Virus record (IMG/VR): IMGVR_UViG_3300032298_001038
Location: 1 to 64,000 of that record
Reading direction: 5' to 3' (one strand)
Origin: a virus
Length of the DNA: 64,000 bases
Part shown: positions 2,291 through 63,132 of the stretch, piece by piece
Numbering within the stretch: the first letter of the stretch is position 1
Layout of the letters: each line of letters opens with the position of its first letter
Program-made: the position numbers and the translations under genes
Notes under the pieces: model-generated
The model's input: only the letters and a program-made list of their open reading frames with translations
The model's database searches: none
What the model was told of the DNA's origin: nothing

Positions 2291-2318
2291 ATATGCCCGG
2301 ATTTTGCTATTTATTTAG
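2291..2318 (-). promoter_or_regulatory. Phage promoter-like motif CTAAATA-N15-GCATAT
   Basis: Exact motif, 15-nt spacer, about 30 nt upstream of the AAA+ start; 1 of 9 copies. Confidence 0.8.
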
Positions 2319-2326
2319 CACCCCGC

Positions 2327-2360
2327 TGATATCTAAAAAAAGGGCCAACCACGCTGGCCC
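2327..2360 (-). terminator. Intrinsic terminator-like hairpin overlapping TTTAGATATCA element
   Basis: GGGCCA/TGGCCC stem followed by TTTTTTAGATATCA on the minus strand. Confidence 0.7.
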
Positions 2361-2376
2361 TGTGCGTTTCCGAACA

Positions 2377-2772
2377 TCACGCCGGCACCTCAACCGCGAG
2401 GCCGCCGTGCGCGTTTACCACCGCCTCCACAACTTCGACCGGAACCCAGCCGTAGACCGTCTCCGTCGGCTTTTCGGGGGATTCGGCGTACGCCATGAAC
2501 TCCTCGACGCGCTCCGACGGAAACCCGATCTCGACGGCGACCCATGGGCCGATGTTTTCCCGCGGCGAGCAGTACGTGTATTCCGAAGCCTGCGCAGAGA
2601 ATGTTAAACCATCGGCACACCTGATTCTTTTCATCTGGCGCATCATGGGAACTTTGCCTTCCCACGCTTTCGCCCAGTATTCGCCGCTCGCCTGCATCCG
2701 TCGAATTCTGGCGAGGCAGTCTTCGCGAAGATTGCTATCATCAGCCAGATAGTCGTTCAAGTTAAACGTCAT
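2377..2772 (-). CDS. Conserved phage hypothetical protein
   Basis: Start MTFNLND with SD AGGAG; SAQASEYTYCSPR...GFPS...TVYGWVPV motif recalled from phage proteins. Confidence 0.7.
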   Translation of the reverse strand: MTFNLNDYLADDSNLREDCLARIRRMQASGEYWAKAWEGKVPMMRQMKRIRCADGLTFSAQASEYTYCSPRENIGPWVAVEIGFPSERVEEFMAYAESPEKPTETVYGWVPVEVVEAVVNAHGGLAVEVPA

Positions 2773-2805
2773 GCTGAATACTCCTGATAGGTGCAATCGT
2801 CGTAA

Positions 2806-2843
2806 AAGCGCTGGCCCGGAGATTGCGACCCGGGCCAGCGCTT
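2806..2843 (-). terminator. Intrinsic terminator
   Basis: 14-bp perfect stem AAGCGCTGGCCCGG/CCGGGCCAGCGCTT, followed by TTTT on the minus strand. Confidence 0.7.
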
Positions 2844-2859
2844 ACGCTACCATACCGCC

Positions 2860-3381
2860 TCAGTTCTGGCTCGGCTCCCACCGTTTGTGGACCGTACCGC
2901 TGAGGGGCTGCGGAGTAATTGCCGCGGTCTTTGCGACCTTGGCCTTCGCAGCCTCGGCGGCGGCGAACTCCTCGTTTCGCTCCTTCTCCATCTTCTCGCC
3001 GTCAGCAAACAACTGCTCGGCGATGTGGTGAAAGTCGATCGAGGCCATGTACGCCGTGAAGACGCTTTCGGCAAACGTCATCGACGACGCCATCTCGTCG
3101 GCCGCCTTCTTGTGCGCCTCGTCGCCGGTCTCGACGGCGATCCGCATGAGCGTCACGATCTCGTTGAGCGTGCTGGCAATTGACTTGCCAACGACCATGG
3201 TGACCCACAGCCCCATGGCGGCGATCGCATCCCGGCGGTGTTCTTCGCACCACTCGGTCTTGCCCAACTTGTTGCGGCCTTCGAGCGCCATGGCGTACGG
3301 ATGGCCGTCCCACGGAATCTCATCGGCCTTCTTTCGGAACCGCTCCAGCGTGGTCTGCGTCGCCTCGTTAACAGCCTTCAT
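2860..3381 (-). CDS. Hypothetical early protein
   Basis: Start MKAVNE with SD GGAG, downstream of the promoter at 3463. Confidence 0.7.
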   Translation of the reverse strand: MKAVNEATQTTLERFRKKADEIPWDGHPYAMALEGRNKLGKTEWCEEHRRDAIAAMGLWVTMVVGKSIASTLNEIVTLMRIAVETGDEAHKKAADEMASSMTFAESVFTAYMASIDFHHIAEQLFADGEKMEKERNEEFAAAEAAKAKVAKTAAITPQPLSGTVHKRWEPSQN

Positions 3382-3462
3382 GTGGTAGTCTCCACCGCGC
3401 AGTGGAAATGGGATCGGCGGCGGTTGCGCGACCGTACGCCGATAAAAAACGTGCACTACCTA

Positions 3463-3490
3463 ATATGCCCGGATTTTGCCCGGTATTTAG
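3463..3490 (-). promoter_or_regulatory. Promoter-like motif CTAAATA-N15-GCATAT
   Basis: Exact motif; shares extended identity with the 2291 copy. Confidence 0.8.
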
Positions 3491-3544
3491 GGTGTTACGA
3501 AACGTCGGCCCAAATGATTCAGGGCAGAGGTTTTGTCACATTTT

Positions 3545-3689
3545 CGCAATTCGCGAATTGCGTAAATCTTTGTCGCGCAAAGAGTTGCGACGAAAAAAAG
3601 TATTTTGACGCAAGTGTTTGATACGCAAAGACTTAGAGCGAATAGGTAATACCCGCACGCTCTAAGTGCTTACGCCGCAAACACTTGCG
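3545..3689. repeat. 18-bp palindrome plus three 29-bp 11-7-11 imperfect palindromic sites
   Basis: CGCAATTCGCGAATTGCG at 3545-3562; sites at 3561, 3609 and 3661 with arm consensus YSYAARTSYTT. Confidence 0.75.
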
Positions 3690-3726
3690 ACAAATGTTCC
3701 ATATTCCAGAAAACGGAACGTCAACT

Positions 3727-4716
3727 TCAATACCGGATACGGATCGCGTCGGTATAGGCACTGTACTTGTAGTTCGACGTGACTTCGCCGTAGCAGCCCT
3801 CAAGGTTGATGCTGGCCTTCGTCGCGCGAACCCACTCCCGATAAGCCTGCCAGCGCGCTTGGCCGGCACGCTCGTAAGCGGCTTCCTTGTTCTGGTCGTC
3901 TACCTGAATACCGCCGGCGGAGTATGACAGTTGATTGCGCCTGAATTGCTCCGCCACCATAAAGAACAGGTTGGCGCAAATACCCTCCAACCAATGATAT
4001 CTAAACGGGAAGTTCTTGGTCGTAAATGTGCGGATCGGCGGCGGTATCTCATTCCAATACATCACCGGGCGGCCAATAGCCAGCGCGATCTCGGCGTCGT
4101 CGAACATCAGGTGCTCAAGCAGGTAACTCTCGCTCGGAGCCGAGTCGCGCAAATGTAGGCGAATCTCGGCGATGCTGGGCGGACCGCTATTTAACCCGCT
4201 GCGGCTGTCGAAGGCGCTGCGGTTAATAATGACGTAAAACGTGTTCGAGAATACGACGCACGGCAAACCAGCCTCTTCAGCCGGGATGTTGATCAGTGCC
4301 ATCTCGCCGTAAAAGATGCCCGGGATGCCGACCAGATTCTTGGTGAGTGCGACTTCAACTTGCCCCGTCGCGGCGGCGACGATGGTCGCGTCAACTTGAA
4401 CAACGGGAGAAGTGTTGCTGAGCGCAATTTGGTCGCGAAGGCGTAAAACGACCTTCATGGGCAATTCATCGCAGGCCGACATATCCACAGGGAGGCCGTC
4501 TTTGTCGTGCATTTGCCACTGAATCGTGGCGCACTGGCCTTGGGTGATCGAGATAGCCCGCATGCGCGTGAGCACAGGCTGGCCGTTTTGTGACGATACC
4601 GGTGCGCTAACAATACTTTGCCCGGCGCAAGAGACTGGCGTCAATACGGGCGCGGTATTGCGGTTGTCGCAGCACTGTTCGAGGGCGTGAGACGTGGGTG
4701 TGGCGATGACGGCCAT
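3727..4716 (-). CDS. Putative head-tail adaptor/neck protein with N-terminal Ig-like domain
   Basis: Position downstream of MCP; beta-rich N-half; helical C-half with LSYSAGGIQVDDQNK typical of neck proteins. Confidence 0.5.
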   Translation of the reverse strand: MAVIATPTSHALEQCCDNRNTAPVLTPVSCAGQSIVSAPVSSQNGQPVLTRMRAISITQGQCATIQWQMHDKDGLPVDMSACDELPMKVVLRLRDQIALSNTSPVVQVDATIVAAATGQVEVALTKNLVGIPGIFYGEMALINIPAEEAGLPCVVFSNTFYVIINRSAFDSRSGLNSGPPSIAEIRLHLRDSAPSESYLLEHLMFDDAEIALAIGRPVMYWNEIPPPIRTFTTKNFPFRYHWLEGICANLFFMVAEQFRRNQLSYSAGGIQVDDQNKEAAYERAGQARWQAYREWVRATKASINLEGCYGEVTSNYKYSAYTDAIRIRY

Positions 4717-4750
4717 GAATGCTCTCCCGTTTTAGTTAAGTATACAAACA

Positions 4751-4783: not shown

Positions 4784-4807
4784 ACGTTTAACACTGCTAG
4801 ATACGAA

Positions 4808-18000: not shown

Positions 18001-19941
18001 TTACAGTGTTCTTGGCTCGGAGCCTAGCGGACTTGCGGGGGTTTGAAAGGCTTTTTGGGGGTTAGATTCAGTTTTCCACCCACTTGTCGCGCCAGAAACG
18101 CCAAATTGCTCGCCCCGCGCGAGCGCAGGCACGTAACTGCTACCTTCGGTATCGCTCTTCAACCCGCGGTGAACACTGTTTAAAAATCCACGTTCTTGAT
18201 ACGACCCCAGCATACGCGTCATCCAGTCAGGATCGTTTGAAATGTTGGCCATGCCGCGCACCATCTCGGACTCGAAGGGCGGCGGCTCTTTATGGGCCTG
18301 AATATTGTTTATGCCGTACTTTTTCAAGTTGTCCGCGACGCTTTTAGTTATTTTTGTGCCGATCGAATAGTGCAAGACCGGTTCTTCCAGATAATGATTC
18401 ATAAGCGTATTCGGCGCAGATGCCACAGCGCCCGAACGCGGCTTCCACGACCGTTCCAGCATTGAATATGGAATAACGTCGTCTGGGGCGTAGTCGCCGT
18501 ATTCGTCGTTCAGCCTGACGTGGTTGATCAGCCCGCGCGCCACTAGTTCGATGTTACGCCGGTGGGCTGTGATGCCGGAATTACCAAGCACTTGCCGCAT
18601 GGCTTGCACGAAGTACTTACGCCCTTCACCGACGCCTTTGTGTTTAACAATCTCGGCGGGGTTGGGCATGCCGTCTGACAGTACGTCGCCGGCTTCCAGT
18701 GCGTCGCCTTTCTTGACGCTCACTTGTCGGTCTGCCGGGACGTAGTGATCTTCACCGTCAACGGTGACGTAAAAGCCGCCCTGCGCGGCTGGGCGAATTT
18801 CTTGCACGCGGCCTTCGCGCTGCGTGTGCGTAGCGCCGTCGGGGTAACGTCGTGGAACTTGCACAAGCGCGTTAATAGCCTTGAAGCCGCCAATCGACTT
18901 TGCCCCGCCTACGCCACCCGAGTGCTTCGACGACAACTGCGACTGCGACACCGGCTCAGACAGCGCTTGCGCAGCCGCAATGCCGACGTAATCACCAACG
19001 GGTGGCACGCGGCCCTTTTCGCGATAGCCGACGTCTTTCGCGTATACGCCGCCATCCTCCGGACCGCCGACCAGCGGACTGCGCACTAAAATATCTTTAA
19101 CGCCCATCGCCTTGATGTCTTTGAGAATTTTGGGCGTGAGTACCGTGTTGCGCTTGTACGGGCCGACAGGTCGCGCCAAAAACGACCCTTCGTTATCCGG
19201 GTCGTCAACGTCGGACGGCAGGCCGCGGTTGTGCGCCGTTACCAGCCGCGCTTCGTCATCGTCGTCATCCGCGGTGACAAGGAGGCGGTGCGCCATCTGC
19301 GTAAGTTGCTTGCCATAAAAACCGGCGTCAGCGGTGGCGGTCTTCACGTCAATCACGCCCTTACGCGTACCGAACGATGCCGCGAAGTATTCAGCCGGCG
19401 TCAAGCCGCGACTGTAACTCCGCAGCACCGGCAGCGGGATTGGGTTATCACGATGGTCGACATATTGCATGTCAGCGCCAATCAGCGAGTTCAACATAAA
19501 CTTGTTGCCCGTGGCGCCGGCCAGCACTTGGTGCGCAAGCGGGTTGTTGGCGTCGCGAGCCTCGTTAAACACGTCTTCAACAAGTTTCTGCTGCGTTTCA
19601 GCCGCAAGTTTCAGAATTTTTAACTCGCGCTCTTTGTCCGAGAGGTTAGTGTCCGCAAGAATTTGACGCAGTTCTTTGCGGACTTTGATTTGCGCGTGGC
19701 GGCTCGCAAACGTCGGCCGAATGTCTTTCAGCCCCATCGACAACCCACCCGTGGTGTACGCCACGTCGCGGGAAACATCGTGAATCTTCTTCATCACCTC
19801 GCGGTACCGGTCAGGGTATTTTTTTGCTAGATCGGTGGCCAACGCGCCCATAGCCTTCTTGTCCAACACGCGTTCGTAATCACGCATGTCGTCCGGAAGG
19901 GCTTCGTTGATCATTAACTGGCCAAGGGTAGTTTTTAACAC
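18001..19941 (-). CDS. rpoC: DNA-directed RNA polymerase beta' subunit, C-terminal half
   Basis: TTLGQL; bridge helix GLTPAEYF...RKGVIDVKTATADAGF; trigger loop GIAAAQALSEPVSQ...KHSGG; no Cys. Confidence 0.92.
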   Translation of the reverse strand: MLKTTLGQLMINEALPDDMRDYERVLDKKAMGALATDLAKKYPDRYREVMKKIHDVSRDVAYTTGGLSMGLKDIRPTFASRHAQIKVRKELRQILADTNLSDKERELKILKLAAETQQKLVEDVFNEARDANNPLAHQVLAGATGNKFMLNSLIGADMQYVDHRDNPIPLPVLRSYSRGLTPAEYFAASFGTRKGVIDVKTATADAGFYGKQLTQMAHRLLVTADDDDDEARLVTAHNRGLPSDVDDPDNEGSFLARPVGPYKRNTVLTPKILKDIKAMGVKDILVRSPLVGGPEDGGVYAKDVGYREKGRVPPVGDYVGIAAAQALSEPVSQSQLSSKHSGGVGGAKSIGGFKAINALVQVPRRYPDGATHTQREGRVQEIRPAAQGGFYVTVDGEDHYVPADRQVSVKKGDALEAGDVLSDGMPNPAEIVKHKGVGEGRKYFVQAMRQVLGNSGITAHRRNIELVARGLINHVRLNDEYGDYAPDDVIPYSMLERSWKPRSGAVASAPNTLMNHYLEEPVLHYSIGTKITKSVADNLKKYGINNIQAHKEPPPFESEMVRGMANISNDPDWMTRMLGSYQERGFLNSVHRGLKSDTEGSSYVPALARGEQFGVSGATSGWKTESNPQKAFQTPASPLGSEPRTL

Positions 19942-19947
19942 GGCAAG

Positions 19948-20163
19948 TCATTTCGGCGGAACAAGTTCTCGTACGGTCGGCGCGTTGTTGAGGCCGACCA
20001 TGTTGAGTACGGTTTTGAAATCACTATCCCCAACTGCCGAGTACAAAATGCCGTCTACAAGGTGCGTAGCGACAAAAATTGGATTACCCAAATCGTCTTC
20101 GATCACGACGCTATGGGCTTTTTGGTCGGCAGGAATTAAGTTGTGCTGCGTTTTAACGAGCAT
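19948..20163 (-). CDS. Small hypothetical protein between RNAP genes
   Basis: 71 aa, coupled to neighbours. Confidence 0.55.
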   Translation of the reverse strand: MLVKTQHNLIPADQKAHSVVIEDDLGNPIFVATHLVDGILYSAVGDSDFKTVLNMVGLNNAPTVRELVPPK

Positions 20164-20896: not shown

Positions 20897-20897
20897 A

Positions 20898-20913
20898 TTT
20901 ACCTCCATGTAAA
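20898..20913 (-). promoter_or_regulatory. CsrA/RsmA-type hairpin over SD
   Basis: TTTAC-ATGGAG-GTAAA. Confidence 0.6.
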
Positions 20914-20916: not shown

Positions 20917-23900
20917 TCAGGCCTTATCTTCCACAATGTGTACCGGCGTGTCCACGTCGATATCGCCCCGTCGGTAGGCGGCGAGGGCGTCTTTTTTCGT
21001 GCGGTAAACGCGCGGCTTAGATTTGTTGTTAACCTTGCTTGAGGCTAAGTATACACCAGTCTGGTAGTCTTTGTTTGGTACATAATGGGCTTTGAAGTTA
21101 GACGCTGCGAAAAGGTTTTTGCTGGGCAGCATCTTTTCGACGGCTTCCTTGGCGGCTTCTTCGGTGCTGGGCACGTGGTACTGCATCGCGTCGCCGTCGA
21201 AATCGGCCCCGAAGCCTTTTGTGATAACCGGGTTTACTTCCATGACCTTGTTTTTTGTTAACCGCGGATAAAACGCCATAACGCCGTACCGGTGTAGAAC
21301 GGGCGCGCGGTTAATGACGATGGGCTTCGCGTTCATTTGCGTGTTTAATTCGGCAAACGCTTCTTTGTTGCGCTCTTCGACTGCCCGCATCGCGTTCATT
21401 CGCGGCATGCCGCGCCTGATCAGCCCGCGGACGACAAACGGCTTGTAAATGTCCCACGCTTTGTCTTCTGGCAGGGCTACCTCGTCCATGTCGAGGTCCG
21501 GGTTGGGCGAGATTACGGCCCGGCCGACAAGGTCCACAGTGCTCGACAGCAGTTTGCGCTGCATCGTGCCAAACTTCGGACTGTCACCAAATATCTTTGA
21601 CAAGAAACCGCGCACGTTCCGTTCGACGTTCTTCGGGTGTTGCGGATCGCCAAGGCCGGACACCGCCTTCATCGAGTCGTATAACGACAACCGCTCGCCG
21701 CCGACGTCGGAAAGCAGGCCAGAGGCTTCCTTCAGCACGTTGTTCGACTCAAGCAGTTCTTTGTACAGATAGTTAGCGTCGTCGATAAGTTGCATCTTCT
21801 TCGCGCCCATCGTCGAGACTGGGCGGAACGCTGGCGGCAGCACGCCGACCTTGGTTTGCATCCAGTCTTTCGGATGGACGCCAGTGGCTTCTGCGCCCTT
21901 CAAAAACGCGAGCCGGCGCACGGCCGCGTCGCGCAACGTCTTGCGACCAGATTTGATGTCTGCGCGCGCTTGCTCGATTGCGCGCGGAAGGTTCACAGAC
22001 TTTAACGCTTCGTGAATCGCTGTTGGTCCGGTCTTGTTGCCCAACTTCTCTTGACCGGCGAGCACGGCGCGGAACTTCTTTTCGGTCAAGCCTAGCGTTC
22101 GCCGAATCGGCTCTTCCATGATCGGGTTCGGCATCGGCTCGTGTAATGTTATTTTTGACCAACGATTGCCGTTGTGACCGCCAGTCAGCGTCTCGTCGAA
22201 CAGCCCGCCTTTAACCGGCTTCAGGTTGCCCTTCCAGTCGACGGTCTCGGCGTTCTGAATCTCGCGATCGCCGGCTAACTCTTCGACGTTCTTGTCAGTC
22301 AACGCCATGATGTGCGTCTTCGAGCCGGTGCGCACAGCGTTTACGCCAGCGCCGCGAAGTTGATTGACAAACTTCTCGTACACGTGCGGCACCTTCGGCA
22401 GCGGCGGGTCATACCCGGCCATGAACTGCGTCCAGTATTCGGGGTTGGCTTGGCCGCGTACCATCTTGGCGTCGCGCACAACCTTGCCGGCGCCGTGAGA
22501 CAAAAGCGCGCCCAGTTCCAGCATGCCGACGCGCTTAGCGCCTTCGCTGCCGCCCTTGGCGGGCGTGCCTTCAGCCGTATACCCGCCGATCGACCGCCCC
22601 TGACCTTTAGACTCAGCCGTGTGGTGCAGTTTCATAAAGAAACGGTTGCCGGTCAGCACGCCACGAATCTTGCGGCCAGTTTCTGGGTCAATCAGGTCTT
22701 CAGTGTCTGTCAGCCCGTGCTTGGCCAACTCCGCGGCGGCCATCTCGACCAGATCGTTATCGTTATCGAAGTCTTTGATCTTGAACGGCTGGCCAGTCTT
22801 TTCAGAAACTTTGCCCAACGCGGCTTCGATGATCTGCGCAGGGTTTACGCGATTAATTAAGCCGAGCGGGCTGACAAGAATTTCGAGCGGCCGGCCTTGC
22901 CCGTCTTGCGGCATCTGATTGTCAGGAACAATCTCCGACACAACGCCCTTGTCGCCGAAGCGGCCGGTAATCTTGTCGCCGACCTCCATCTGCGACTTCG
23001 ACTTCACGACGACGGACACGCCCTTCTTGGTGTGCTCCACGTCAGTCACGACGCCCGGCGAGTGATGCTCCCACGTCATCGTCTCGTTCGCGAACGCGCC
23101 CGCCCGGCCGCGGTGTACTTTGCCGTAAACCTGATCGCGCTTCTTGGCGACGAGCACCAGCGGGTCGCCAAAATTGACGATCGTGCCTTTTTTGATTGCG
23201 CCGTTATCGTCAAAGTTCTCCAGCATCTTTTTGTCGTACTCGCTGGGAAACAAACTGACGAAAGCCTTCTTGCCGACGTGGGTGTTGTCATCCCACTCGG
23301 CTTCGTGCTGATACATGTGCTGGCTGGTGAGTTTCTTGGCAGCCGATTCAGATATCACAACGGCGTCTTCGTAGTTGCGCCCGCGGAACGGCGTATAGCC
23401 CACGCGCAAATTTAAACCCAGCGCAGCCGCGCCGCCTTTATCAGTAAAGTTACTGGTAGCGATCAGTTGGCCGGGCTTCACGACATCGCCGGGCTTTACC
23501 GTCGGCGTCTGCGTCCAGAACGTCTTCCGATTGAACGGCATGTCGTTGTATAAGTCGATCGTGTGCTTCTGGCCGTCCTTGTCGCGAATGATCATCTCGT
23601 CTGGCGTGACTGCGACAACTTGCCCGCCGACTTGGGATTTAATTGCGCCTAACTTTTCGCCCATCTCGTCTTCGTGCGAAACGCTTCCGTCACCGTCGAA
23701 CTTGGCGGATTGCACGAACGGCGACTCAGCGTTTTCGAGCGGGAGCGCCTGCGTAAACATACGGCTACCCATGATGACGCGCTGGCCTTTTACCATGCTT
23801 TTCATCGGCACCATGTTGGTCAGCGACGAAAACGTGTTGTCCATGTTCGGAACGGTGTACTGCGCGTCTTTGCGCGGCACGTACTTAATCTTGCCGTTTA

Positions 23901-25347
23901 CAAGCGCCGCGACCATCGGCAGGTCCGACTTGTCCTCGCCCGGGAACATGAGCGGCATGTCCGCCAGTTCTTGCGGCGTCTTGTACTCCGTCTCGCCGGT
24001 GTTGGCGTTCTTGACGGGCACCACAAACGTGTGCAGGTTGTTGCCCAACTTGCGCGCCCCGGCAGCGAAGCGCATGTCTACGCCCACCTTGCCAGACTCC
24101 GGCGTGCGGAGATAGTCGATAAAGCCGAAGTGGCTGGGCTGCACGCTGCGCGACTCCGCCGGCACGGCGTCCAGCGAGCCGATGCCGCCTTCGCCGAGCC
24201 GGGTCACGCGCGTCTGGTGGTCAAAAATTTCAGCCGGGTTGATTTCTTCGAGGCTCGACCCCAATCCCGAGCCAATGAGCGCCGCGGTGATCGACTTGTT
24301 AAAGATGCCGCTGGGGATGTGGTCCAGCGTCTTCTTCGCGGTGGCTTTCCAGAGCAACTGCCGCAGGGCCGACTTGTCTTTCACGAACCGTTCCGATATC
24401 AAATCTTCCGGGCCAAAGACTTGCTGGAACGTCATGCTATCGCGGTCGTCGCTTTCGGCTTCCTTGCGATTGACCGCGATAAGTTTTTTGGTGATGTCCA
24501 GAATGGCGTCTGGCGTCAGATTCTTGTACGGCGTGCCCAACGTGCGCTTCGTAACCTCTTCGTCCAACTCCGTCTTGGCAAACTCCGCGGCGATAGCCTT
24601 GATCTTGGCTAACTGGTCCGCTGCCGGGTCTGGCTTAAATACGAGCCGGCTGTAAAGTTTATCCAGCGTGCCGGCGTCGCCTTTCTGCATGTTTACGGCG
24701 GCGATCTCGTTGCCCCACGCTTCCCGTATCTGCTTTTCTTGCACGCCGAGTGTCTTCAGCAGCGGCATGAGCGGAATCTTAGCCTGCCCGATCTGGATTT
24801 GAAACTCGCCGGTTTTGGGGTCCATGTAATAACGGTGCGAGCGGCCTTTGCCGGGCAGCGTGTTAACGTGCGATTCCAGTTCGCCGTTATCTTTCTCGCG
24901 CGTGAACACGCCCGGCCTGAGTCGCAGTTGATGTGCCAGCGTGTATTCGACACCTTTGTTTACAAACGTACCTGAGTCGGTCAGATATGGCACATTTGCT
25001 ATCGTAGCCTGTCGCGAAGCGACAGGCTTTTCCGAGCCATTTTCTATTAAAGTCCACGTGCCCGTTAACTTTCGGGCAAGTGTGCCGCGAGTTAATACAG
25101 CCTTCTTTTGATCTTTACGCGAATAGCGCTCAGGCCCCGCGTAACCCACGTTCGTGAGTTTAAGGGTGTAAAGATCGTTCTGGATCGGCTCAATGCCTGA
25201 CGCAGAACGCAGCGCCTCGTTAAAGATGTTATCGCGCAGGGCGTTAATATCGCCGAATGCGCGGGTCTGTTGCTGCGGAGGAGCAAGAGGCGGAAGAGCC
25301 GGAACTGTCTGCGGTTTCAGCGGCGGCAAGGGGTCGGACATGGTCAC
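20917..25347 (-). CDS. rpoB-rpoC: RNA polymerase beta subunit fused to beta' N-terminal half (catalytic DFDGD)
   Basis: beta motifs GTFVNKG, RTPESGKVG, GDKITGRFGDKG, KLHH...KRVGMLE, followed by beta' motifs KGGLFD, VLPPAFRP, NRAPVLHR, GADFDGDAM; no Cys. Confidence 0.95.
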   Translation of the reverse strand: MTMSDPLPPLKPQTVPALPPLAPPQQQTRAFGDINALRDNIFNEALRSASGIEPIQNDLYTLKLTNVGYAGPERYSRKDQKKAVLTRGTLARKLTGTWTLIENGSEKPVASRQATIANVPYLTDSGTFVNKGVEYTLAHQLRLRPGVFTREKDNGELESHVNTLPGKGRSHRYYMDPKTGEFQIQIGQAKIPLMPLLKTLGVQEKQIREAWGNEIAAVNMQKGDAGTLDKLYSRLVFKPDPAADQLAKIKAIAAEFAKTELDEEVTKRTLGTPYKNLTPDAILDITKKLIAVNRKEAESDDRDSMTFQQVFGPEDLISERFVKDKSALRQLLWKATAKKTLDHIPSGIFNKSITAALIGSGLGSSLEEINPAEIFDHQTRVTRLGEGGIGSLDAVPAESRSVQPSHFGFIDYLRTPESGKVGVDMRFAAGARKLGNNLHTFVVPVKNANTGETEYKTPQELADMPLMFPGEDKSDLPMVAALVNGKIKYVPRKDAQYTVPNMDNTFSSLTNMVPMKSMVKGQRVIMGSRMFTQALPLENAESPFVQSAKFDGDGSVSHEDEMGEKLGAIKSQVGGQVVAVTPDEMIIRDKDGQKHTIDLYNDMPFNRKTFWTQTPTVKPGDVVKPGQLIATSNFTDKGGAAALGLNLRVGYTPFRGRNYEDAVVISESAAKKLTSQHMYQHEAEWDDNTHVGKKAFVSLFPSEYDKKMLENFDDNGAIKKGTIVNFGDPLVLVAKKRDQVYGKVHRGRAGAFANETMTWEHHSPGVVTDVEHTKKGVSVVVKSKSQMEVGDKITGRFGDKGVVSEIVPDNQMPQDGQGRPLEILVSPLGLINRVNPAQIIEAALGKVSEKTGQPFKIKDFDNDNDLVEMAAAELAKHGLTDTEDLIDPETGRKIRGVLTGNRFFMKLHHTAESKGQGRSIGGYTAEGTPAKGGSEGAKRVGMLELGALLSHGAGKVVRDAKMVRGQANPEYWTQFMAGYDPPLPKVPHVYEKFVNQLRGAGVNAVRTGSKTHIMALTDKNVEELAGDREIQNAETVDWKGNLKPVKGGLFDETLTGGHNGNRWSKITLHEPMPNPIMEEPIRRTLGLTEKKFRAVLAGQEKLGNKTGPTAIHEALKSVNLPRAIEQARADIKSGRKTLRDAAVRRLAFLKGAEATGVHPKDWMQTKVGVLPPAFRPVSTMGAKKMQLIDDANYLYKELLESNNVLKEASGLLSDVGGERLSLYDSMKAVSGLGDPQHPKNVERNVRGFLSKIFGDSPKFGTMQRKLLSSTVDLVGRAVISPNPDLDMDEVALPEDKAWDIYKPFVVRGLIRRGMPRMNAMRAVEERNKEAFAELNTQMNAKPIVINRAPVLHRYGVMAFYPRLTKNKVMEVNPVITKGFGADFDGDAMQYHVPSTEEAAKEAVEKMLPSKNLFAASNFKAHYVPNKDYQTGVYLASSKVNNKSKPRVYRTKKDALAAYRRGDIDVDTPVHIVEDKA

Positions 25348-38938: not shown

Positions 38939-38967
38939 AACTCCTCCGCGCAAAACTAAAGTATACC

Positions 38968-41596: not shown

Positions 41597-41668
41597 CTGC
41601 CCGGGTAAGACTCGAACTTACAACCCCAGCATTAACAGTGCCGTGCACTACCATTGTGCTACCGGGCA
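41597..41668 (-). tRNA. trnN-GTT: tRNA-Asn (GUU), CCA not encoded
   Basis: Acceptor TGCCCGG/CCGGGCA; D-arm GCAC-AATGGTA-GTGC; anticodon arm CGGCA-CTGTTAA-TGCTG; T-arm GTAAG-TTCGAGT-CTTAC; discriminator G. Confidence 0.92.
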
Positions 41669-47949: not shown

Positions 47950-50319
47950 TTACAGGCCAAATTGCGCCCGCAACCACGCATTTGCAACGGGATTTTGGGC
48001 TGTTTCTTCCGGCTCCGCGTCCAAAATACTTGATATCTTTACGCTCGGACCCTCGGGCGGAGGAGCGCCACCTTCTTCACGGAGAATGCGCCGGAACGCC
48101 TCGTTGATCTCTTCTTTCTCCGCGGTGAGTCGTTCCAGTACTTCGTCGCCGGTGCGCTGGCGTTTGGCGCCGAATAAATACTTCCCGATCAGGCCCGGCT
48201 CAGTCGATTCGGTGAGGTACCGCCGGACAAGCACGTTGCGCAGGTCTTCAGGCAGTCCCGCGTGGCTGTCAAAGCGCAGACCACGGCCGCGGGCTTGTTG
48301 GCTGCGGGCTTCGTTCCAGTGCGGGTCCAGAAGTTGAATTAAACTCGTGCCCTTCGTGCTAATCCCTTCCGCCGCGGCCGGCCCGAGAAGCAGGGCTTTG
48401 CTGCGCCCTTCGTTGTAGTCTTTCAGGGCTTTCTGCCGGTCTTTCAAGGGGATGCCGCCATGAAACACGCCATACGGAATCTTGTCCCGTTCAAGGGCCG
48501 CAGCATAGGGGTTCACGCCCGAATCAATGAAGTTCGAGTAGATGATGGCTTTCTTGCGCGGGTCTGATTTAATCGTCTCTTGAAAGTCCTGATACGCCTT
48601 TTGCATCTTGCTGGACTGCTCGAACGCCTTGATCGGATTCTTGTCTTTGCGGAACGCCTGCGTGGACAAACTCACTTGGCGCAGGCCGTTCAAGAACGAG
48701 TTCATCTTGGCCAGTTCTTCGCGCGACAGTGGGAACTCTTGGTCTAACTTCCACAAGAAGCCGGGCGGAATGCGCGTGCGAATGGCGTTCTGAATCTTCT
48801 GCTGTGCGTCGGACATCGGCACGCGCACGATCTCTTCATTAACGTTCACGCCTTCAGGAGTCTTGCTGGGGTGATAGTCCACTTTGCCCTTGAGCAGTTC
48901 ACGCAGTTCGTCTTCGTTCTTGACGTAGGCTTTCTCGCCCGGCTTTGCGCCCCTGAACCAACCCAACCAGCCCGGGCCGACTTTCTTGTAGCCCACGTAC
49001 TTCTCTTCGAACTGCTCCGGAGAAATCTTCTGGTTGTTCAGCATCGAGAGCAGGCTGGCCAAGTCGGTCGGCGCATTGGTGATCGGCGTGCCCGTGAGCA
49101 AGAGTAAACGCTTGGCTTGGCGCGCGGCCTCTGTAGCCGCGCGGGTGCTGGCGGCGTCGGGATTACGTAACCGGGCAGCCTCGTCCATGATCAGCGTGTC
49201 GGGCGGCTTCTTGAACTGCTTGCCCAAACCCAACCCGGTGTAACTCATGATCTCAGGCTTGGACCCGGTCGTGAACTTGTCGATCTCTTTCTGGAAGTTC
49301 GCGCGCAGACTCGCCGGGACCACGACGCCGTAGTCTTCTTGATATTTTTGTTTGGCGGCTTCGGCAGCAGCAATAGCCGAGAGAGACTTGCCGGACCCTA
49401 GGCCGTGATAGACCAGTAAGCGCGGGTCGTCGCCGGTGAGTTTGTCGGCAATGCGCTGTTGGTGCTCTTGGAGTTGGACTTCTGGTAATAAGTCGGCTTG
49501 CTTTTCCGGTTGTTCGTGTTGAATGTACTTAGCCGGAATTTTCTGCGTAGTGTACTGGTCGGTCATGAGCATATTGAGCGGCCACGGAAACAACGGCTGC
49601 ACAGCAAAGTCATCAGGGAGTTCTACTTTCAAGCGCGCGTCGCCGTACCCAGAGTTCAACTGCGGATGTGTGGCTAGAAACACCCGACGTTCGTAACCCG
49701 GAATGTCGGTCGGGACGCCGGAGTCAGCCCCAGTACCAGCAAATTCCGGGTCAAGACCGCGCTCCAAAATAGACTTGAGGTTTTTGCTGGCGGTGCCGTG
49801 ATAAAACGTTTTTGCAGCCTGCTTCTGCTGCGCCAGATGCCGCTGCGTGGCTTTGGTCTTGTACGCGTCCAGCATCTCGGCAACGCGCTGCTGCTCTTCA
49901 GGCGACACGAGCGTCGTCGGGTCAATTGCCCAGTTGCGCAGCGCCCAGCCGCGTCGGGGTGTGGGGTTCTTGGCAAACGGACCGCCATGGCGGGCTTTGA
50001 AACTCAGCCAGCGCTTGATCTGCCGGGTGTCTTCGTCCGGGATTCTGCGGCCACTGGTGTAACGCTTGTACCACTGCGCCCAGCCCTTGGGATCGTGCTC
50101 GCTGACCCATTCAGGCTTCCACTCGCCAAGACTGGCTAACCGCGGGCCTTGGCCGCGGTACAGCGCGTCGTACACGCCAAGGTTCTCCAGTTGCTCCGGG
50201 GTGTAGTCCGGCGCAAACGCGGCGTCGAGAGCCTGCAACTTCTCCGTGGCTGTCTTCAAGATAGCAGCCGGAAGATAGTCCGCGTCCAAGATAGATTTGC
50301 TGGGCTGCCTACTTGTCAT
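47950..50319 (-). CDS. Polyprotein: unknown domain + ADP-ribosyltransferase-fold domain + SNF2/SF2 helicase
   Basis: DPKGWAQWY.RY..GRR...D..QI.RW; YHGT...SIL..GL...VFLA...IP.KYI; HGLGSGKS, DEAA, TGTP and QARGRGLR; KQA at both junctions; no Cys. Confidence 0.85.
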   Translation of the reverse strand: MTSRQPSKSILDADYLPAAILKTATEKLQALDAAFAPDYTPEQLENLGVYDALYRGQGPRLASLGEWKPEWVSEHDPKGWAQWYKRYTSGRRIPDEDTRQIKRWLSFKARHGGPFAKNPTPRRGWALRNWAIDPTTLVSPEEQQRVAEMLDAYKTKATQRHLAQQKQAAKTFYHGTASKNLKSILERGLDPEFAGTGADSGVPTDIPGYERRVFLATHPQLNSGYGDARLKVELPDDFAVQPLFPWPLNMLMTDQYTTQKIPAKYIQHEQPEKQADLLPEVQLQEHQQRIADKLTGDDPRLLVYHGLGSGKSLSAIAAAEAAKQKYQEDYGVVVPASLRANFQKEIDKFTTGSKPEIMSYTGLGLGKQFKKPPDTLIMDEAARLRNPDAASTRAATEAARQAKRLLLLTGTPITNAPTDLASLLSMLNNQKISPEQFEEKYVGYKKVGPGWLGWFRGAKPGEKAYVKNEDELRELLKGKVDYHPSKTPEGVNVNEEIVRVPMSDAQQKIQNAIRTRIPPGFLWKLDQEFPLSREELAKMNSFLNGLRQVSLSTQAFRKDKNPIKAFEQSSKMQKAYQDFQETIKSDPRKKAIIYSNFIDSGVNPYAAALERDKIPYGVFHGGIPLKDRQKALKDYNEGRSKALLLGPAAAEGISTKGTSLIQLLDPHWNEARSQQARGRGLRFDSHAGLPEDLRNVLVRRYLTESTEPGLIGKYLFGAKRQRTGDEVLERLTAEKEEINEAFRRILREEGGAPPPEGPSVKISSILDAEPEETAQNPVANAWLRAQFGL

Positions 50320-58997: not shown

Positions 58998-59059
58998 TGA
59001 TATCTAAAAGAAACACGCGGTGGTCCGGGTGATTAGGCCCGGACTACCTGTGTTCCTTT
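58998..59059 (-). other. Two-tier hairpin + TTTAGATATCA element (no full promoter)
   Basis: Inner GTCCGGG/CCCGGAC and outer imperfect stem; GCATAT 4 nt downstream. Confidence 0.65.
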
Positions 59060-59106: not shown

Positions 59107-59742
59107 TTACAGCCCGACGAGGAAGCCCTGAGCGGCAGCCAGCAGGGGTTCGTGGGAAATCTCGTCCAGATGGTGCATTGCCTGAATCTGCATTTGCACT
59201 CCCATCTGCCGGAAGAACGAATGCCAGAAGCCGCCCGTGATGGGGTTCTTCGGCATGGCTTTCCCGACCGTCTCAATGAACAGGCCGGCGAGTTTGACCC
59301 TCACCGCCTGCTCGTCCATCGACAGGTCGTTCCAGCCCGTCATGTTCCCGATAGCATTGGCGAACTTGATGTGCGCCAAGTCGCCGTCGCCACTGTCCTG
59401 TTCTTCAGCCTCCATCAACGGCGCACGGTTGATGGTGGTGTGGGTCTCAGCCGCGGGAGCCTTGTTCGCCCACGCAGTCGCAATCACTGAGACAGCGACG
59501 GCGAGTAGCACGAACGGCACGAAACCCTTCACGCGGTCCGGGGCCGAGCGGCAGACGGCACACCCGGCCATCCACAGAAAGCACGCCGCACCGAACGCGC
59601 CGAGCGCCATGACCACGTAGGACACGGCGACTTGTGCCGGAGTGCTCGCCGTCAGAAAGCACTCCTGATAAAACCCCACCACGCCATACCCGAGCATGAA
59701 GCCTCCGAGGGTACGCATGGCGGCAACAATCGTGTTCTTCAT
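59107..59742 (-). CDS. Early multi-TM protein
   Basis: Three TM helices plus a soluble C-terminal domain; SD GGAG. Confidence 0.65.
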   Translation of the reverse strand: MKNTIVAAMRTLGGFMLGYGVVGFYQECFLTASTPAQVAVSYVVMALGAFGAACFLWMAGCAVCRSAPDRVKGFVPFVLLAVAVSVIATAWANKAPAAETHTTINRAPLMEAEEQDSGDGDLAHIKFANAIGNMTGWNDLSMDEQAVRVKLAGLFIETVGKAMPKNPITGGFWHSFFRQMGVQMQIQAMHHLDEISHEPLLAAAQGFLVGL

Positions 59743-59836: not shown

Positions 59837-59864
59837 ATATGCCCGTATATGCGCAAATATTAAG
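59837..59864 (-). promoter_or_regulatory. Promoter-like motif CTTAATA-N15-GCATAT
   Basis: One mismatch, 15-nt spacer. Confidence 0.75.
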
Positions 59865-59872: not shown

Positions 59873-59923
59873 TGATATCTAAAAACAAGCGCCCAACCCC
59901 GGGGGCGCTTGTGGCCCCCGGGG
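59873..59923 (-). terminator. Hairpin + TTTTAGATATCA element
   Basis: ACAAGCGCCC/GGGCGCTTGT + T-tract, with an alternative CCCCGGGGG stem. Confidence 0.65.
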
Positions 59924-59936: not shown

Positions 59937-60356
59937 CTACTCGTCGACGGGGCGCAGGTGCGAGTCCTGCGTCCGGGCGTAGTTCCACACGGCGTAGATC
60001 ACGTCGCGCACGGCGACGGTGCCCATCGCCACGCCCTTGAGGCGGTCGCGGCCGAGGAAGCGCGTGAGGCGCTTCGAAAAGGCCTCACCGCCCACCTGCA
60101 TGTCGCAGGCGAGGAGCAGTTCGAGGTCGGCCCGCGCCGCCTTCTCGGCGAGCAGGTCCCTGCACTGCTCGTCCGACATCGGCCCGTGCTCAGCGCGCAA
60201 GGCGTTGAAGCGCTCCTGCTCAGCCTTGAGGGCGAGCAGGCGAGCGGCGTGGTCCTGCTCGTTCTTGCGCTTCTTCTCAATCTGCGCGGCGGTCTTCGGC
60301 CGCTTGGTCTTGGTCGCCGTCGTGCCGTCCTTCTTGCCCTTGGTGTCCTTGGACAT
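59937..60356 (-). CDS. Lys/Arg-rich early protein
   Basis: Start MSKDTK, SD AGGAG; very high GC3. Confidence 0.65.
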   Translation of the reverse strand: MSKDTKGKKDGTTATKTKRPKTAAQIEKKRKNEQDHAARLLALKAEQERFNALRAEHGPMSDEQCRDLLAEKAARADLELLLACDMQVGGEAFSKRLTRFLGRDRLKGVAMGTVAVRDVIYAVWNYARTQDSHLRPVDE

Positions 60357-60382
60357 GATCACGTCTCCTACCCCGTCGGTGC

Positions 60383-60452
60383 AAGCGTACGAATCACCGA
60401 TGACAACCAACCCACTGTTATTAACCCTGTGTTAACAACAATCGGTACGCTT
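60383..60452 (-). ncRNA. Structured 5' leader motif, copy 2
   Basis: Same P1; P2 with a compensatory G-C for C-G change. Confidence 0.6.
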
Positions 60453-60457: not shown

Positions 60458-60485
60458 ATATGCCCGCATACGCGCAGATATTTAG
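60458..60485 (-). promoter_or_regulatory. Promoter-like motif CTAAATA-N15-GCATAT
   Basis: Exact. Confidence 0.8.
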
Positions 60486-60493: not shown

Positions 60494-60550
60494 TGATATC
60501 TAAAAAGCAGGCACAGCGGGCGGGCTTGCGCCCGCCACACCATGCCTGCT
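60494..60550 (-). terminator. Two-tier hairpin + TTTTAGATATCA
   Basis: AGCAGGCA/TGCCTGCT outer and GGCGGGC/GCCCGCC inner stems. Confidence 0.65.
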
Positions 60551-60596: not shown

Positions 60597-61178
60597 TCAC
60601 AGCGTGAGCGCGGCAGCCGGGGTGCGGCTGGCCGGCGCCTCGCGCAGGCCGACGTAGGCCAGCGTGAACGCGAGCGCCGCGATGACCGCGATCCACAGCA
60701 TGCCGACCACGCTGGCGCTGCCCGGCGCACCGGTGCAGACCCAAGCGCCGCCGCCGATGCTCACGTACTCGTTGCCACTGAGCGTGGCGGTCGAGTACAG
60801 GAACCCGGGCTGCACGTCAGCACCCACGGTGCGAACGATCACCGCGTCGCTGGTGGCGCCGAGGACACCACCGTCACGGCTGTCCCACGCCACGTTGGAC
60901 GTGGTGAACTCCGAGGCCGGCGGGGCGACGACCGCCACCACACCAGCCAGCGCCACGAAGGCAACGACCGGGGTGACGATGGACGCCACGATCCGAGGGC
61001 TGCGCTTCGGGGTGCTGCGGAGCGTGTTCGCCGCGGCGTCGCCCGCCGTGTTGAACACCTTGACGACCTGCTCCTTGGTCGTACCCGCCTTGACGACGTT
61101 CTCGACCTTGTTGAACAGGTGCGAGACGCCGTACAGGATAACCGCGGCGGTGGCGGCGAGGGCAATGTAACTGATCAT
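60597..61178 (-). CDS. Early three-TM protein
   Basis: Hydrophobic helices; SD AAGGAG inside a hairpin. Confidence 0.65.
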   Translation of the reverse strand: MISYIALAATAAVILYGVSHLFNKVENVVKAGTTKEQVVKVFNTAGDAAANTLRSTPKRSPRIVASIVTPVVAFVALAGVVAVVAPPASEFTTSNVAWDSRDGGVLGATSDAVIVRTVGADVQPGFLYSTATLSGNEYVSIGGGAWVCTGAPGSASVVGMLWIAVIAALAFTLAYVGLREAPASRTPAAALTL

Positions 61179-61327: not shown

Positions 61328-61360
61328 TGCTGGTTTCACTGCTAACCAGCGGAACACTAG

Positions 61361-61388
61361 ATATGCCCTGTTTTGACCCGGTATTTAG
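61361..61388 (-). promoter_or_regulatory. Promoter-like motif CTAAATA-N15-GCATAT
   Basis: Exact; embedded in an 11-bp inverted repeat. Confidence 0.8.
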
Positions 61389-61412
61389 CCGGCAGGGCAT
61401 ATCGGGCGTATA

Positions 61413-61577
61413 TCACAGGCCCGAGAGGCCCATGTACACGCCGTAGGCAAAGCAGGCGCAGATGTAAGCGCCCACCGCAACCATCACACACAATGCGATG
61501 TTGCGGACCGTCCGAGTGACGAAGCGGACGGGGAGAACAAGGCCGTAGTAGAGAGCGGCGCAGAAAGCATAGGTCAT
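61413..61577 (-). CDS. 54-aa two-TM peptide (not in ORF track)
   Basis: SD AAGGGTGA; own promoter at 61678. Confidence 0.55.
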   Translation of the reverse strand: MTYAFCAALYYGLVLPVRFVTRTVRNIALCVMVAVGAYICACFAYGVYMGLSGL

Positions 61578-61677
61578 GGCTTCACCCTTTCAAGGTGACT
61601 ATCTGTGTGTCCCGCATGCAAAGTGCGCACTTTGCTGGTGCCCGGTACGCCCACAGATAACTAGACGCCCGTACTTA

Positions 61678-61705
61678 ATATGCGTGTAAATGCGGGAGTA
61701 TTTAG
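61678..61705 (-). promoter_or_regulatory. Promoter-like motif CTAAATA-N15-GCATAT
   Basis: Exact. Confidence 0.8.
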
Positions 61706-61708
61706 CCT

Positions 61709-61773
61709 TGATATCTAAACGAACGTGTGGGTGCCCGGGGCGTTAACCCCGGGCATGGCTTCCACACGTCGTT
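61709..61773 (-). other. Two-tier hairpin + TTTAGATATCA
   Basis: Inner TGCCCGGGG/CCCCGGGCA and outer AACGACGTGTGG/CCACACGTTCGTT. Confidence 0.7.
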
Positions 61774-61780
61774 GTTGCGA

Positions 61781-62227
61781 TCACCAGTCGCCGCCGTAGG
61801 CTTTTTCGCTGGCGGCGTACTCGTCGTCGCTCTCGTCGCTCTCGTCGCTCTCGTCGTCGACGAACTCCGCCATCGCAGCGCGGTGTGAGTCGCGGTCGTA
61901 CTCGATGGACTTGTTCCACCGAGCAGAGGACTGCGCCGCGTGATCGCGTGCTGTGCTTTGCACCCGATATACGAGACCCGACAACTCCGGCAGCGCAGCG
62001 TCGAAGAACGCCTGCACGCCGCTGGAGAGCCGGGTCAGGACGTAAACCGGCACGACGACGACCGCGAAGGCGGCCGACATCCAACAGAACTGGAAGGCGT
62101 TGTGGAGCCGGCGGCCGAGCCGCTTCCAGTCCTTTGTCCTCACCATCATGAGGGCCGTCCACACGACACACATGATGACGCCGGTGACAGCGGCGATACC
62201 GTAGAAGAACATTTGCTCAGTGGTCAT
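61781..62227 (-). CDS. Early membrane protein with acidic tail
   Basis: Start MTTEQ, SD AAGGAG; two TM helices; DDESDESDESDD tail. Confidence 0.65.
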   Translation of the reverse strand: MTTEQMFFYGIAAVTGVIMCVVWTALMMVRTKDWKRLGRRLHNAFQFCWMSAAFAVVVVPVYVLTRLSSGVQAFFDAALPELSGLVYRVQSTARDHAAQSSARWNKSIEYDRDSHRAAMAEFVDDESDESDESDDEYAASEKAYGGDW

Positions 62228-62323
62228 CTCTCTGCTCCTTACCCCGTGTTGCTGGTGGCTGAAGTTAGCCGCGGCGTACGTTCCGCACAGTCCAACGCGC
62301 AACAGATAATTGGACTGCATTAG

Positions 62324-62351
62324 ATATGCCGCAGAACACGGGAGTATTTAG
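62324..62351 (-). promoter_or_regulatory. Promoter-like motif CTAAATA-N15-GCATAT
   Basis: Exact. Confidence 0.8.
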
Positions 62352-62354
62352 CCC

Positions 62355-62414
62355 TGATATCTAAACGTGACGTGCACAACCCGGGTGTGACCCCGGGCTA
62401 TACACGTACACGTT
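62355..62414 (-). other. Two-tier hairpin + TTTAGATATCA
   Basis: Inner CCCGGG/CCCGGG and outer AACGTG-ACGTG/CACGTCACGTT. Confidence 0.7.
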
Positions 62415-62418
62415 GTGA

Positions 62419-62727
62419 TCAGTCGCGGAACAGCGCCTCCGGCGGGAGGTGCTTGCCCGTGACGTTATAGATCACGCCCTCAATGGCGCACTCCAACGCC
62501 GACGCACTGCGGGCGGCGAGGGAGTTGGGTTCCAGTTTCTTGTTAATCAAGAACTGCAACAGTCGCGCCGCCGCGACGATGTCGCGCGGCTGAGTGCCGG
62601 ACCAGTCGCTTTGATGCACGAACGCTTTAATGGCCGAACGCAGACGCTTGAGCGCCGCGTCGCCACCACCGAACAAGTCGTCGGCGCTCCCGAACAGCGA
62701 ATCATCGTTGTCAAACAGGTTAGCCAT
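62419..62727 (-). CDS. Early hypothetical protein
   Basis: SD AAGGAG; own promoter. Confidence 0.65.
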   Translation of the reverse strand: MANLFDNDDSLFGSADDLFGGGDAALKRLRSAIKAFVHQSDWSGTQPRDIVAAARLLQFLINKKLEPNSLAARSASALECAIEGVIYNVTGKHLPPEALFRD

Positions 62728-62800
62728 GGCTAACTCCTTATCGCGCTACCCCGGACATGGCGTTGTGTTGCTGCGCGAATAACAACACGTGCCTTATTGC

Positions 62801-62828
62801 ATATGCGTGTAAATACCGCGCTATTTAG
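62801..62828 (-). promoter_or_regulatory. Promoter-like motif CTAAATA-N15-GCATAT
   Basis: Exact. Confidence 0.8.
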
Positions 62829-62831
62829 TTG

Positions 62832-62891
62832 TGATATCTAAACGAGGCGCGAACAGCCGGGGCGTTACCCCCGGCGTCGCGACACCCGTTT
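62832..62891 (-). other. Two-tier hairpin + TTTAGATATCA
   Basis: Inner GCCGGGG/CCCCGGC; imperfect outer stem ending CGTTTAG. Confidence 0.65.
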
Positions 62892-62895
62892 ACTT

Positions 62896-63003
62896 TCACT
62901 CGCGGTCCTCCGTCTGAGCGGTGAGCATCGCGTCCTCGCACTTCTCACAGCGCTCCTCGTCGATCTCCACCGTCTCCCAACCGCAGCATTCGCAACGGGG
63001 CAT
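62896..63003 (-). CDS. 35-aa zinc-ribbon peptide (not in ORF track)
   Basis: MPRCECCG...RCEKCED; SD GAGGT; own promoter at 63105. Confidence 0.55.
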   Translation of the reverse strand: MPRCECCGWETVEIDEERCEKCEDAMLTAQTEDRE

Positions 63004-63104
63004 GACACACCTCTTGTGTTTTCGTGCTTCCTCCGGGCACGGCCGGGACTAATGCAAAAGCAGGGAGTCACCCGGGCCGCCAATACGTATCGGCGACTTA
63101 ATAG

Positions 63105-63132
63105 ATATGCCAGAGAAGCCGGCAGAATTTAG
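63105..63132 (-). promoter_or_regulatory. Promoter-like motif CTAAATT-N15-GCATAT
   Basis: One mismatch, 15-nt spacer. Confidence 0.7.

Follow-up and report, generated by a model that had tools for sequence, protein, structure and literature searches.

Motif B and its distribution

The first 64 kilobases (kb) of IMG/VR virus record IMGVR_UViG_3300032298_001038 (positions 1 to 64,000, referred to here as ‘the window’; the complete record comprises 198,312 base pairs (bp) and has a 123-bp terminal repeat) carry nine minus-strand copies of a two-part sequence, CTAAATA-N15-GCATAT, that we designate motif B (Table 1). Seven of these copies are exact, the remaining two (at 59837 and 63105) each contain a single mismatch, and the spacer is 15 nucleotides (nt) long in all nine. 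A preliminary description of the window, made from its sequence alone, had listed the same nine copies with the same constant spacer and the same seven exact matches, and our motif search recovered every one of them at its coordinate. That description had also reported the motif to be absent between 3.7 and 58.9 kb, which holds: the only other match in the window, at position 50361, has two mismatches, and we regard it as a chance occurrence because it lies inside a gene and scores below 8 bits with a position matrix. Shuffled versions of the window sequence yielded 0.00 exact matches and 0.44 matches at two or fewer mismatches.

A search of the whole genome, which the preliminary description had put forward as a check, added three copies at positions 73184, 95058 and 158891 (all with CTAAATT as the upstream block), giving exactly 12 sites in 198,312 bp, all co-oriented with the genes. 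Position-matrix scores along both strands of the genome were clearly bimodal, with 12 sites at or above 24.6 bits and none from 8 to 24; the matrix having been built from the motif B sites themselves, only that empty interval is informative. A gene call based on codon usage assigned approximately 223 of 229 genes to the minus strand, the strand that also carries the motif, and motif B therefore runs with transcription.

Each copy in the window is followed by a gene start. Measured from the predicted +1 to the first start codon with a Shine–Dalgarno site, the distances amount to 32–177 nt, in close agreement with the 30–180 nt claimed at the outset. Searches of Pfam and PHROGs assigned no function to the proteins encoded behind motif B, with the exception of an AAA_5 ATPase, nor to those encoded after element A (a second repeated signal, described below). 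Comparison of the putative early proteins with one another revealed no paralogy, so that gene duplication does not account for the motif B copies. The first open reading frame (ORF) behind the copy at 63105, of 35 amino acids (aa) at positions 62896-63003 of the minus strand, contains two cysteine pairs (CxCC … CxxC) and has a good Shine–Dalgarno site; it may encode a mini zinc-ribbon early protein.

Anatomy of the motif

Alignment of 37 sites from six genomes (the one studied here and five relatives) gave the consensus g-CTAAAT(A/T)-N5-(C)AAWW-N4-GGCATAT-y-n-a-n-T-R. Position 22 is G in 35 of the 37 sites; this base was demanded by the first collection scan, the search pattern being otherwise without it. 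Positions 16-17, which the search pattern left free as it did positions 33 and 34 (see below), are occupied by A or T only, never by G or C. The two blocks, CTAAAT and GCATAT, are separated by 16 nt in all 12 sites of the genome and in the 37 sites of the six genomes, consistent with the ∼16–18 bp that we took as the criterion for a two-block promoter. The spacers vary in sequence and share no common hairpin of the kind found in N4-type hairpin promoters (stem of 5–7 bp, loop of 3 nt).

Past the downstream block, position 33 is T in 33 of 37 sites and position 34 is a purine in all 37. This T–purine pair, located 6 nt past GCATAT, resembles a start site (pyrimidine at −1, purine at +1), and its purine agrees with the start predicted earlier at about 6 nt after GCATAT. 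Folding of the predicted leaders gave more stable structures than folding of shuffled sequences (−13.0 versus −9.3 kcal/mol; Wilcoxon p = 2e-7); once upstream bases are included the stem starts scatter, and the folding does not fix the exact +1.

A phage sigma factor and a phage polymerase

The preliminary description had seen no sigma homolog, which is correct for the window but not for the genome. A tblastn search with gp10, an annotated sigma factor of Salmonella phage Arash (OQ632216), located a gene for a sigma70-family protein of 268 aa at genome positions 178,077-178,883 (minus strand), 114 kb past the window. The protein matches Pfam families Sigma70_r3 (4e-9) and Sigma70_r4 (7.5e-5) and the NCBIfam RpoD C-terminal model (1.8e-10), and its residues 62-256 match PDB chains of SigA, RpoD and RpoS in a sequence search. 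When its AlphaFold model (mean predicted local distance difference test score, pLDDT, of 68.7) was submitted to Foldseek, the best 50 matches were all sigma factors, with a probability of 1.0 and 228–284 aligned columns. The Pfam, PDB and full-length Foldseek matches together cover sigma regions 2, 3 and 4; a PDB search with region 4 alone was uninformative. The helix-turn-helix of region 4 (containing TPGAVSQRAAKIQ) is invariant among 19 aligned members of the family. Against the FliA_WhiG model (TIGR02479) the protein scores 21.4 bits, far from the cut-off of 189.6, and RpoD_Cterm scores higher.

A sigma family profile detected this one sigma only in the studied genome, and likewise a single one in a complete relative. 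The metagenomes searched contain approximately 350 homologs, many of them on contigs of ∼200 kb. The sigma gene adjoins a homolog of the virion protein gp13 of Arash, and Arash shows the same gene order.

The window itself encodes a bacterial-type RNA polymerase in two polypeptides, a fusion of beta with the N-terminal part of beta′ and a separate C-terminal part of beta′ (Table 1), and profile searches of the whole genome found no second beta/beta′ set. Identity to cellular enzymes is 26–32%, with recognizable Rpb1 and Rpb2 domains, and this closeness suggests that the phage polymerase may keep sigma-binding surfaces. Comparison of beta places phage Arash (32% identity over 97% of the protein) nearest among cultured phages, together with Vibrio phages D69, D148 and D181. 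Arash has homologs of beta, beta′, the sigma factor (gp10) and an SNF2-type helicase that is also encoded in the window and is a possible partner of the phage polymerase; a second annotated sigma of Arash, gp196, is without a homolog in the studied genome. Mass spectrometry of purified Arash virions identified beta (gp206) as the most abundant protein and also detected beta′ (gp216) and the helicase (gp217), together with the annotated sigma gp10 at 100% coverage and 467 spectra (PMC10585845).

The sigma factor, beta, beta′ and the SNF2 helicase all lack cysteine, an amino acid that accounts for a mean of 1.34% of the proteome. Among the proteins with 150 aa or more (136 in all), only 17 are free of cysteine, and we estimate the chance of a cysteine-free sigma alone, from its 268 aa and the 1.34% mean, at ∼0.03. 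The absence of cysteine from all four proteins fits a shared fate as ejected cargo. The large cysteine-free set comprises beta/beta′, the SNF2 helicase, a NUDIX/2H protein, the sigma factor and three unknowns of 635, 901 and 1387 aa, and we consider the absence of cysteine a candidate signature of packaged and ejected proteins. Between the two polymerase genes lies a cysteine-free ORF of 251 aa (20153-20908, minus strand), proline-rich in the stretch read and without a family match; its product may be a further polymerase-associated subunit.

Conservation of the motif and its relation to the sigma factor

A motif scan of viral contigs returned five contigs with 2–9 copies on one strand and no control hits (counted over whole records); the polymerase gene is present in four of them (79–89% identity) and the sigma gene in three (68–81%), the others being fragments. 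Motif B is also present in 18 of 20 further contigs retrieved by their sigma genes (1–9 one-strand copies, versus 0–1 control hits); in each of the ten records with a completeness of 90% or more and a sigma at 61–69% identity, the count is 4–9, again on one strand. Altogether the motif occurs in more than 20 related viral contigs of ∼200 kb and follows the phage sigma across phages of 52–60% G+C. Upstream of the orthologous AAA-ATPase gene in five genomes, elements A and B alone are invariant, at a mean identity of 51%.

Among more distant relatives, the motif changes with the sigma factor. A phage whose sigma is 52% identical (G018) has three sites of the form CTAAAA(A)-N14-GGCATAT. In another (G019), with a sigma at 43% identity, five sites follow CTAAAWW-N14-GnCAYnn-N5-TG; here the upstream block and the SQRAAKIQ helix of the sigma are kept and the −10 block is degenerate. 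The Arash sigma aligns with that of the studied phage over regions 2-3 only, its region-4 helix being different, and the Arash genome contains no CTAAATA-N15-GCATAT. It contains instead the sequence tGGTATAAG-N5-TG 40 times. Thirty-nine of these copies are on the minus strand, where most Arash genes lie, and they precede non-structural genes and tRNAs; a weak TCCAATAA-like block is located 13 nt upstream. The Arash motif is repeated and co-oriented with genes as motif B is, with a core (GG-Y-ATA-W) similar to GGCATAT. In Arash, G018 and G019, dyads counted de novo yielded no signals other than those of tRNAs and repeat arrays, and a targeted listing was used instead.

Where region 2/3 is related, the GG-Y-ATA-W block is thus related too, and where region 4 differs, so does the upstream block. 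Sigma and motif change together in the way that recognition by the sigma factor predicts, which is circumstantial evidence for such recognition. The tGGTATAAG-N5-TG motif apparently represents a promoter class not described before; since Arash is in culture, that motif could be tested directly.

Comparison with known promoters and phages

That motif B does not match the sigma70 promoter TTGACA-N17-TATAAT was correctly noted in the preliminary description. Requiring at least four of six matches per hexamer, we found that the upstream block matches TTGACA in two or three positions at best, and a sigma70 consensus scan of the 58.8–64 kb region gave 2 sites, versus 1.7 expected, with none at motif B. 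The architecture is nonetheless that of a sigma-family promoter, and resembles that of sigma28. The fliC promoter of P. aeruginosa, of the sigma28/FliA class, reads (−36)TCTAAAG(−30)-N14-(−15)GCCGATAA(−8) (PMC12784957). Motif B agrees with this class in its −35 block and its spacing: it shares the CTAAA core, the 14 nt between the 7-mer and the block that follows (GGCATAT or GCCGATAA), the distance from CTAAA to ATA (20 positions to the A) and a G/C-rich stretch before ATA(T/A). The −10 blocks disagree, nGGCATAT corresponding to GCCGATAA in the last four positions only (ATAT versus ATAA/ATAT) and differing from it in three of four G/C-rich positions (GGC versus CCG). The putative cognate factor is not a FliA ortholog but phage-encoded, with the RpoD C-terminal model as its best match. 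We therefore regard motif B as working like the sigma28 class without being a member of it, because the architecture fits whereas the G/C part differs and the sigma is not a FliA ortholog.

According to reviews, a jumbo phage carries either a polymerase of its own without a sigma or a sigma without a polymerase (PMC7824862, PMC13282480). The phiKZ and AR9 phages belong to the former kind, with two polymerase sets split into 4–5 polypeptides and no sigma homolog (PMC7824862, PMC13282480). The phage studied here is like them in having its own multisubunit beta/beta′ polymerase, probably packaged, and few strict putative promoters before small, probably early genes; it differs in having a single set (the beta–beta′ N-terminal fusion and the beta′ C-terminal part), a bona fide sigma70-family protein and a two-part motif of the −35/−10 type. 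SPO1 (gp28), T4 (gp55) and the ‘group 2’ jumbo phages (PMC7824862) use a phage sigma-family protein to define a promoter class, but are without a polymerase of their own; the phage studied here encodes one alongside its sigma, and the Arash homolog of that sigma is present in virions.

A near-identity search of cultured phages gave no match, and a literature search for the motif B string returned nothing relevant. The ‘Moraphage’ lineage is a different group without its own RNA polymerase. An N4-like phage was rejected. N4-type hairpin promoters are read by a single-subunit virion enzyme, and the polymerase found here is multisubunit.

Models for recognition of motif B

We favor the reading that motif B represents phage-specific promoters read by the phage sigma factor, most likely together with the single, probably packaged beta/beta′ polymerase of the phage and probably at the start of infection, and assign it a probability of roughly 0.66. 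The parallel change of sigma and motif across relatives suggests that the sigma recognizes the blocks, and analogy with Arash indicates that the genes are probably early, the holoenzyme packaged in the virion and the polymerase that of the phage. In the sequence of events that we envisage, sigma and polymerase would be made late and enter the virion, from which they would be ejected along with the DNA. The holoenzyme would bind the 12 motif B sites, with sigma region 4 reading CTAAAT(A/T) as a −35-type element and region 2/3 reading GGCATAT as a −10-type element. Transcription would start approximately 6 nt downstream, at the invariant purine preceded by T, resulting in structured leaders, and the 12 sites would thereby switch on small host-takeover ORFans and the AAA-ATPase operon as infection begins. 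The preliminary description had already proposed a promoter of the phage's own machinery; strand, position before genes, conservation and the lack of sigma70 consensus in the region speak for that part, and the specificity factor that it could not name now appears to be a sigma70-family protein.

Several observations weigh against this reading. Sigma70 factors use aromatic residues of region 2 to melt the −10 element, and the phage sigma seems, from its sequence, to have these residues replaced, so that −10 recognition may work differently. If the −11 base corresponds, as it does in sigma28 promoters, to the A of CATAT, the T–purine pair stands 2 nt closer to ATA than it does in that class or in Arash. 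Retrieval of the distant sigmas was biased toward the conserved SQRAAKIQ helix. The list of proteins detected in Arash virions is very long, and the authors of that study caution that abundant non-structural ones may have been carried over (PMC10585845). Twelve sites, moreover, cannot explain the transcription of ∼230 genes, which calls for other signals (element A, the GTATACT box described below) or for long read-through along the single coding strand.

The sigma factor could also bind the host core enzyme, as in SPO1, the T4 late genes and jumbo phages without an RNA polymerase, with the phage polymerase using element A or the GTATACT box. According to reviews, phage sigmas normally redirect host RNA polymerase and jumbo phages that encode a polymerase lack a sigma (PMC7824862, PMC13282480); the phage sigma is closest to cellular sigmas of the RpoD/SigA type, and the genome does carry other conserved promoter-like elements. 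We nevertheless judge this arrangement unlikely, given that Arash virions contain the homolog of the sigma alongside beta and beta′ (PMC10585845), that the sigma and the polymerase subunits share an unusual absence of cysteine, that the sigma gene lies in a structural-gene neighborhood and that the sigma-binding surfaces of the phage polymerase may have been kept.

Recognition by the host holoenzyme alone, through a divergent housekeeping sigma or the host sigma28/FliA, with the phage sigma serving other genes, appears improbable: the −35 block is a poor match to TTGACA and the scan gave no consensus enrichment, GGC replaces the CCG of GCCGATAA (the sigma28 −10 consensus octamer) in all sites, and the motif tracks the phage sigma across phages of differing G+C and changes as that sigma diverges. 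The CTAAA core and spacing, which are those of sigma28 promoters, and the match of CATATy to TATAAT in four of six positions are what would favor it. Still harder to credit is a role other than that of a promoter, either as an operator for a phage DNA-binding protein or as an RNA-level, termination or processing signal. Starts at motif B are predictions, and the adjoining element A has palindromic cores and could be an operator; the blocks of motif B itself are asymmetric at fixed spacing, as in sigma promoters, with no dyad symmetry, an invariant T–purine lies at start-site distance, and the motif always precedes a Shine–Dalgarno start codon, often right after a terminator-like hairpin.

If phage sigma and phage polymerase do act together on motif B, a broader proposal suggests itself, to which we give slightly less than even odds: that an uncultured clade of ∼200-kb phages, and at a greater distance also Arash and the Vibrio phages D69, D148 and D181, packages a complete bacterial-type holoenzyme, made up of a beta/beta′ core and a true sigma70-family factor, that reads sigma28-like two-part promoters on ejection. 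In that case a phage multisubunit polymerase would for the first time be known to work with a bona fide sigma, contrary to the published rule by which a jumbo phage carries its own RNA polymerase or a sigma, but not the two together; the lineage does hold both genes, against the dichotomy drawn in reviews (PMC13282480, PMC7824862). Three proteins and a 34-bp signal make a compact, directly testable system for studying the use of sigma by a minimal viral polymerase without alpha and omega, the onset of infection with packaged transcription machinery and the co-evolution of sigma and promoter specificity. The strict, host-orthogonal promoter–sigma pair could also serve as a genetic tool.

Element A and other candidate signals

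Element A consists of a T-run followed by TTAGATATC and is present in 12 minus-strand copies and no plus-strand copy. It stands 4–9 nt upstream of six of the nine motif B sites in the window, and otherwise occurs alone, 14–31 nt before a start codon (162 nt at 58999-59007). It usually comes after a G+C-rich hairpin and T-run, and is conserved in relatives as TTAGCTATC. Element A could be a second promoter class, an operator (it has the palindromic cores GATATC and TAGCTA) or part of a terminator. Terminator-like sites number 13 in the 58.8–64 kb region, versus 4.5 expected, and motif B often follows directly after such a hairpin.

A further repeated sequence, the GTATACT box, often has the form tgtttGTATACT and stands directly past a terminator hairpin, ∼20–30 nt before a start codon. 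It is kept at orthologous places in three genomes (G001-G003), and TGTATA[AC]T occurs 4 versus 0 and 5 versus 0 times on the gene strand versus the other strand in two complete genomes. The box resembles the GGTATAAG box of Arash. We consider it a candidate −10-only promoter class for the large gene blocks.

Table 1. Positions of the repeated signals and of the transcription-related and cysteine-free proteins (window positions unless marked ‘genome’; for motif B, distances run from the predicted +1 to the start codon)
Feature	Position	Strand	Details
Motif B, exact	2291..2318	minus	predicted +1 ∼2285; predicted to drive AAA_5 ATPase gene 1426-2259; 32-nt leader, GGAG Shine–Dalgarno
Motif B, exact	3463..3490	minus	predicted +1 ∼3457; ORFan gene 2860-3381 (173 aa), 76 nt downstream
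Motif B, CTTAATA	59837..59864	minus	predicted +1 ∼59831; ORFan gene 59107-59742, 89 nt downstream
Motif B, exact	60458..60485	minus	predicted +1 ∼60452; ORFan gene 59937-60410, 90-96 nt to start codon; true start probably internal
Motif B, exact	61361..61388	minus	predicted +1 ∼61355; ORFan gene 60597-61178, 177 (or 101) nt
Motif B, exact	61678..61705	minus	predicted +1 ∼61672; small ORF 61413-61577 (54 aa), 95 nt
Motif B, exact	62324..62351	minus	predicted +1 ∼62318; ORFan gene 61781-62227 (148 aa), 91 nt
Motif B, exact	62801..62828	minus	predicted +1 ∼62795; ORFan gene 62419-62727 (102 aa), 68 nt
Motif B, CTAAATT	63105..63132	minus	predicted +1 ∼63099; first Shine–Dalgarno ORF is the 35-aa ORF 62896-63003, 96 nt
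Element A with motif B	62833..62841	minus	4 nt upstream of motif B at 62801
Element A with motif B	62356-62364, 61710-61718, 60495-60503, 59874-59882, 2328-2336	minus	each 4-9 nt upstream of motif B
Element A alone	58999-59007	minus	162 nt before start codon
Element A, beyond window	genome 93432-93440, 158344-158352, 197502-197510	minus	
Terminator-like hairpin	59885..59912	minus	T-run running into element A; similar one at 60510-60541
GTATACT box	4739-4745, 38960-38966; genome 80147-80153, 195264-195270	minus (window sites)	
Beta fused to N-terminal part of beta′	20917..25347	minus	1476 aa, no cysteine; Rpb2_6 2e-49, Rpb1_2 7e-24
C-terminal part of beta′	18001..19941	minus	646 aa, no cysteine; Rpb1_5 4e-22
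SNF2-type helicase	47950..50319	minus	no cysteine; homolog of Arash virion protein gp217
Large cysteine-free proteins	10511-12418, 18001-19941, 20917-25347, 33869-35836, 47950-50319, 53199-55904; genome 178077-178883, 182339-186502		

Other features

The window also encodes an actin-fold protein (37285-38319, minus strand) that matches Pfam family Volactin at 1.5e-58, a family described from haloarchaea and here present in a bacterial-type phage. The match prompted us to consider a haloarchaeal virus with TATA box and initiator promoters, a candidate that was rejected because the proteins are not acidic and the polymerase is of bacterial type. A single tRNA gene (41597-41668, minus strand; Rfam, 67.5 bits) is located within a large gene block. 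Just past the window, genome positions 65047-65697 hold an array of CGGCAGGC-containing repeats with a period of ∼50 nt.

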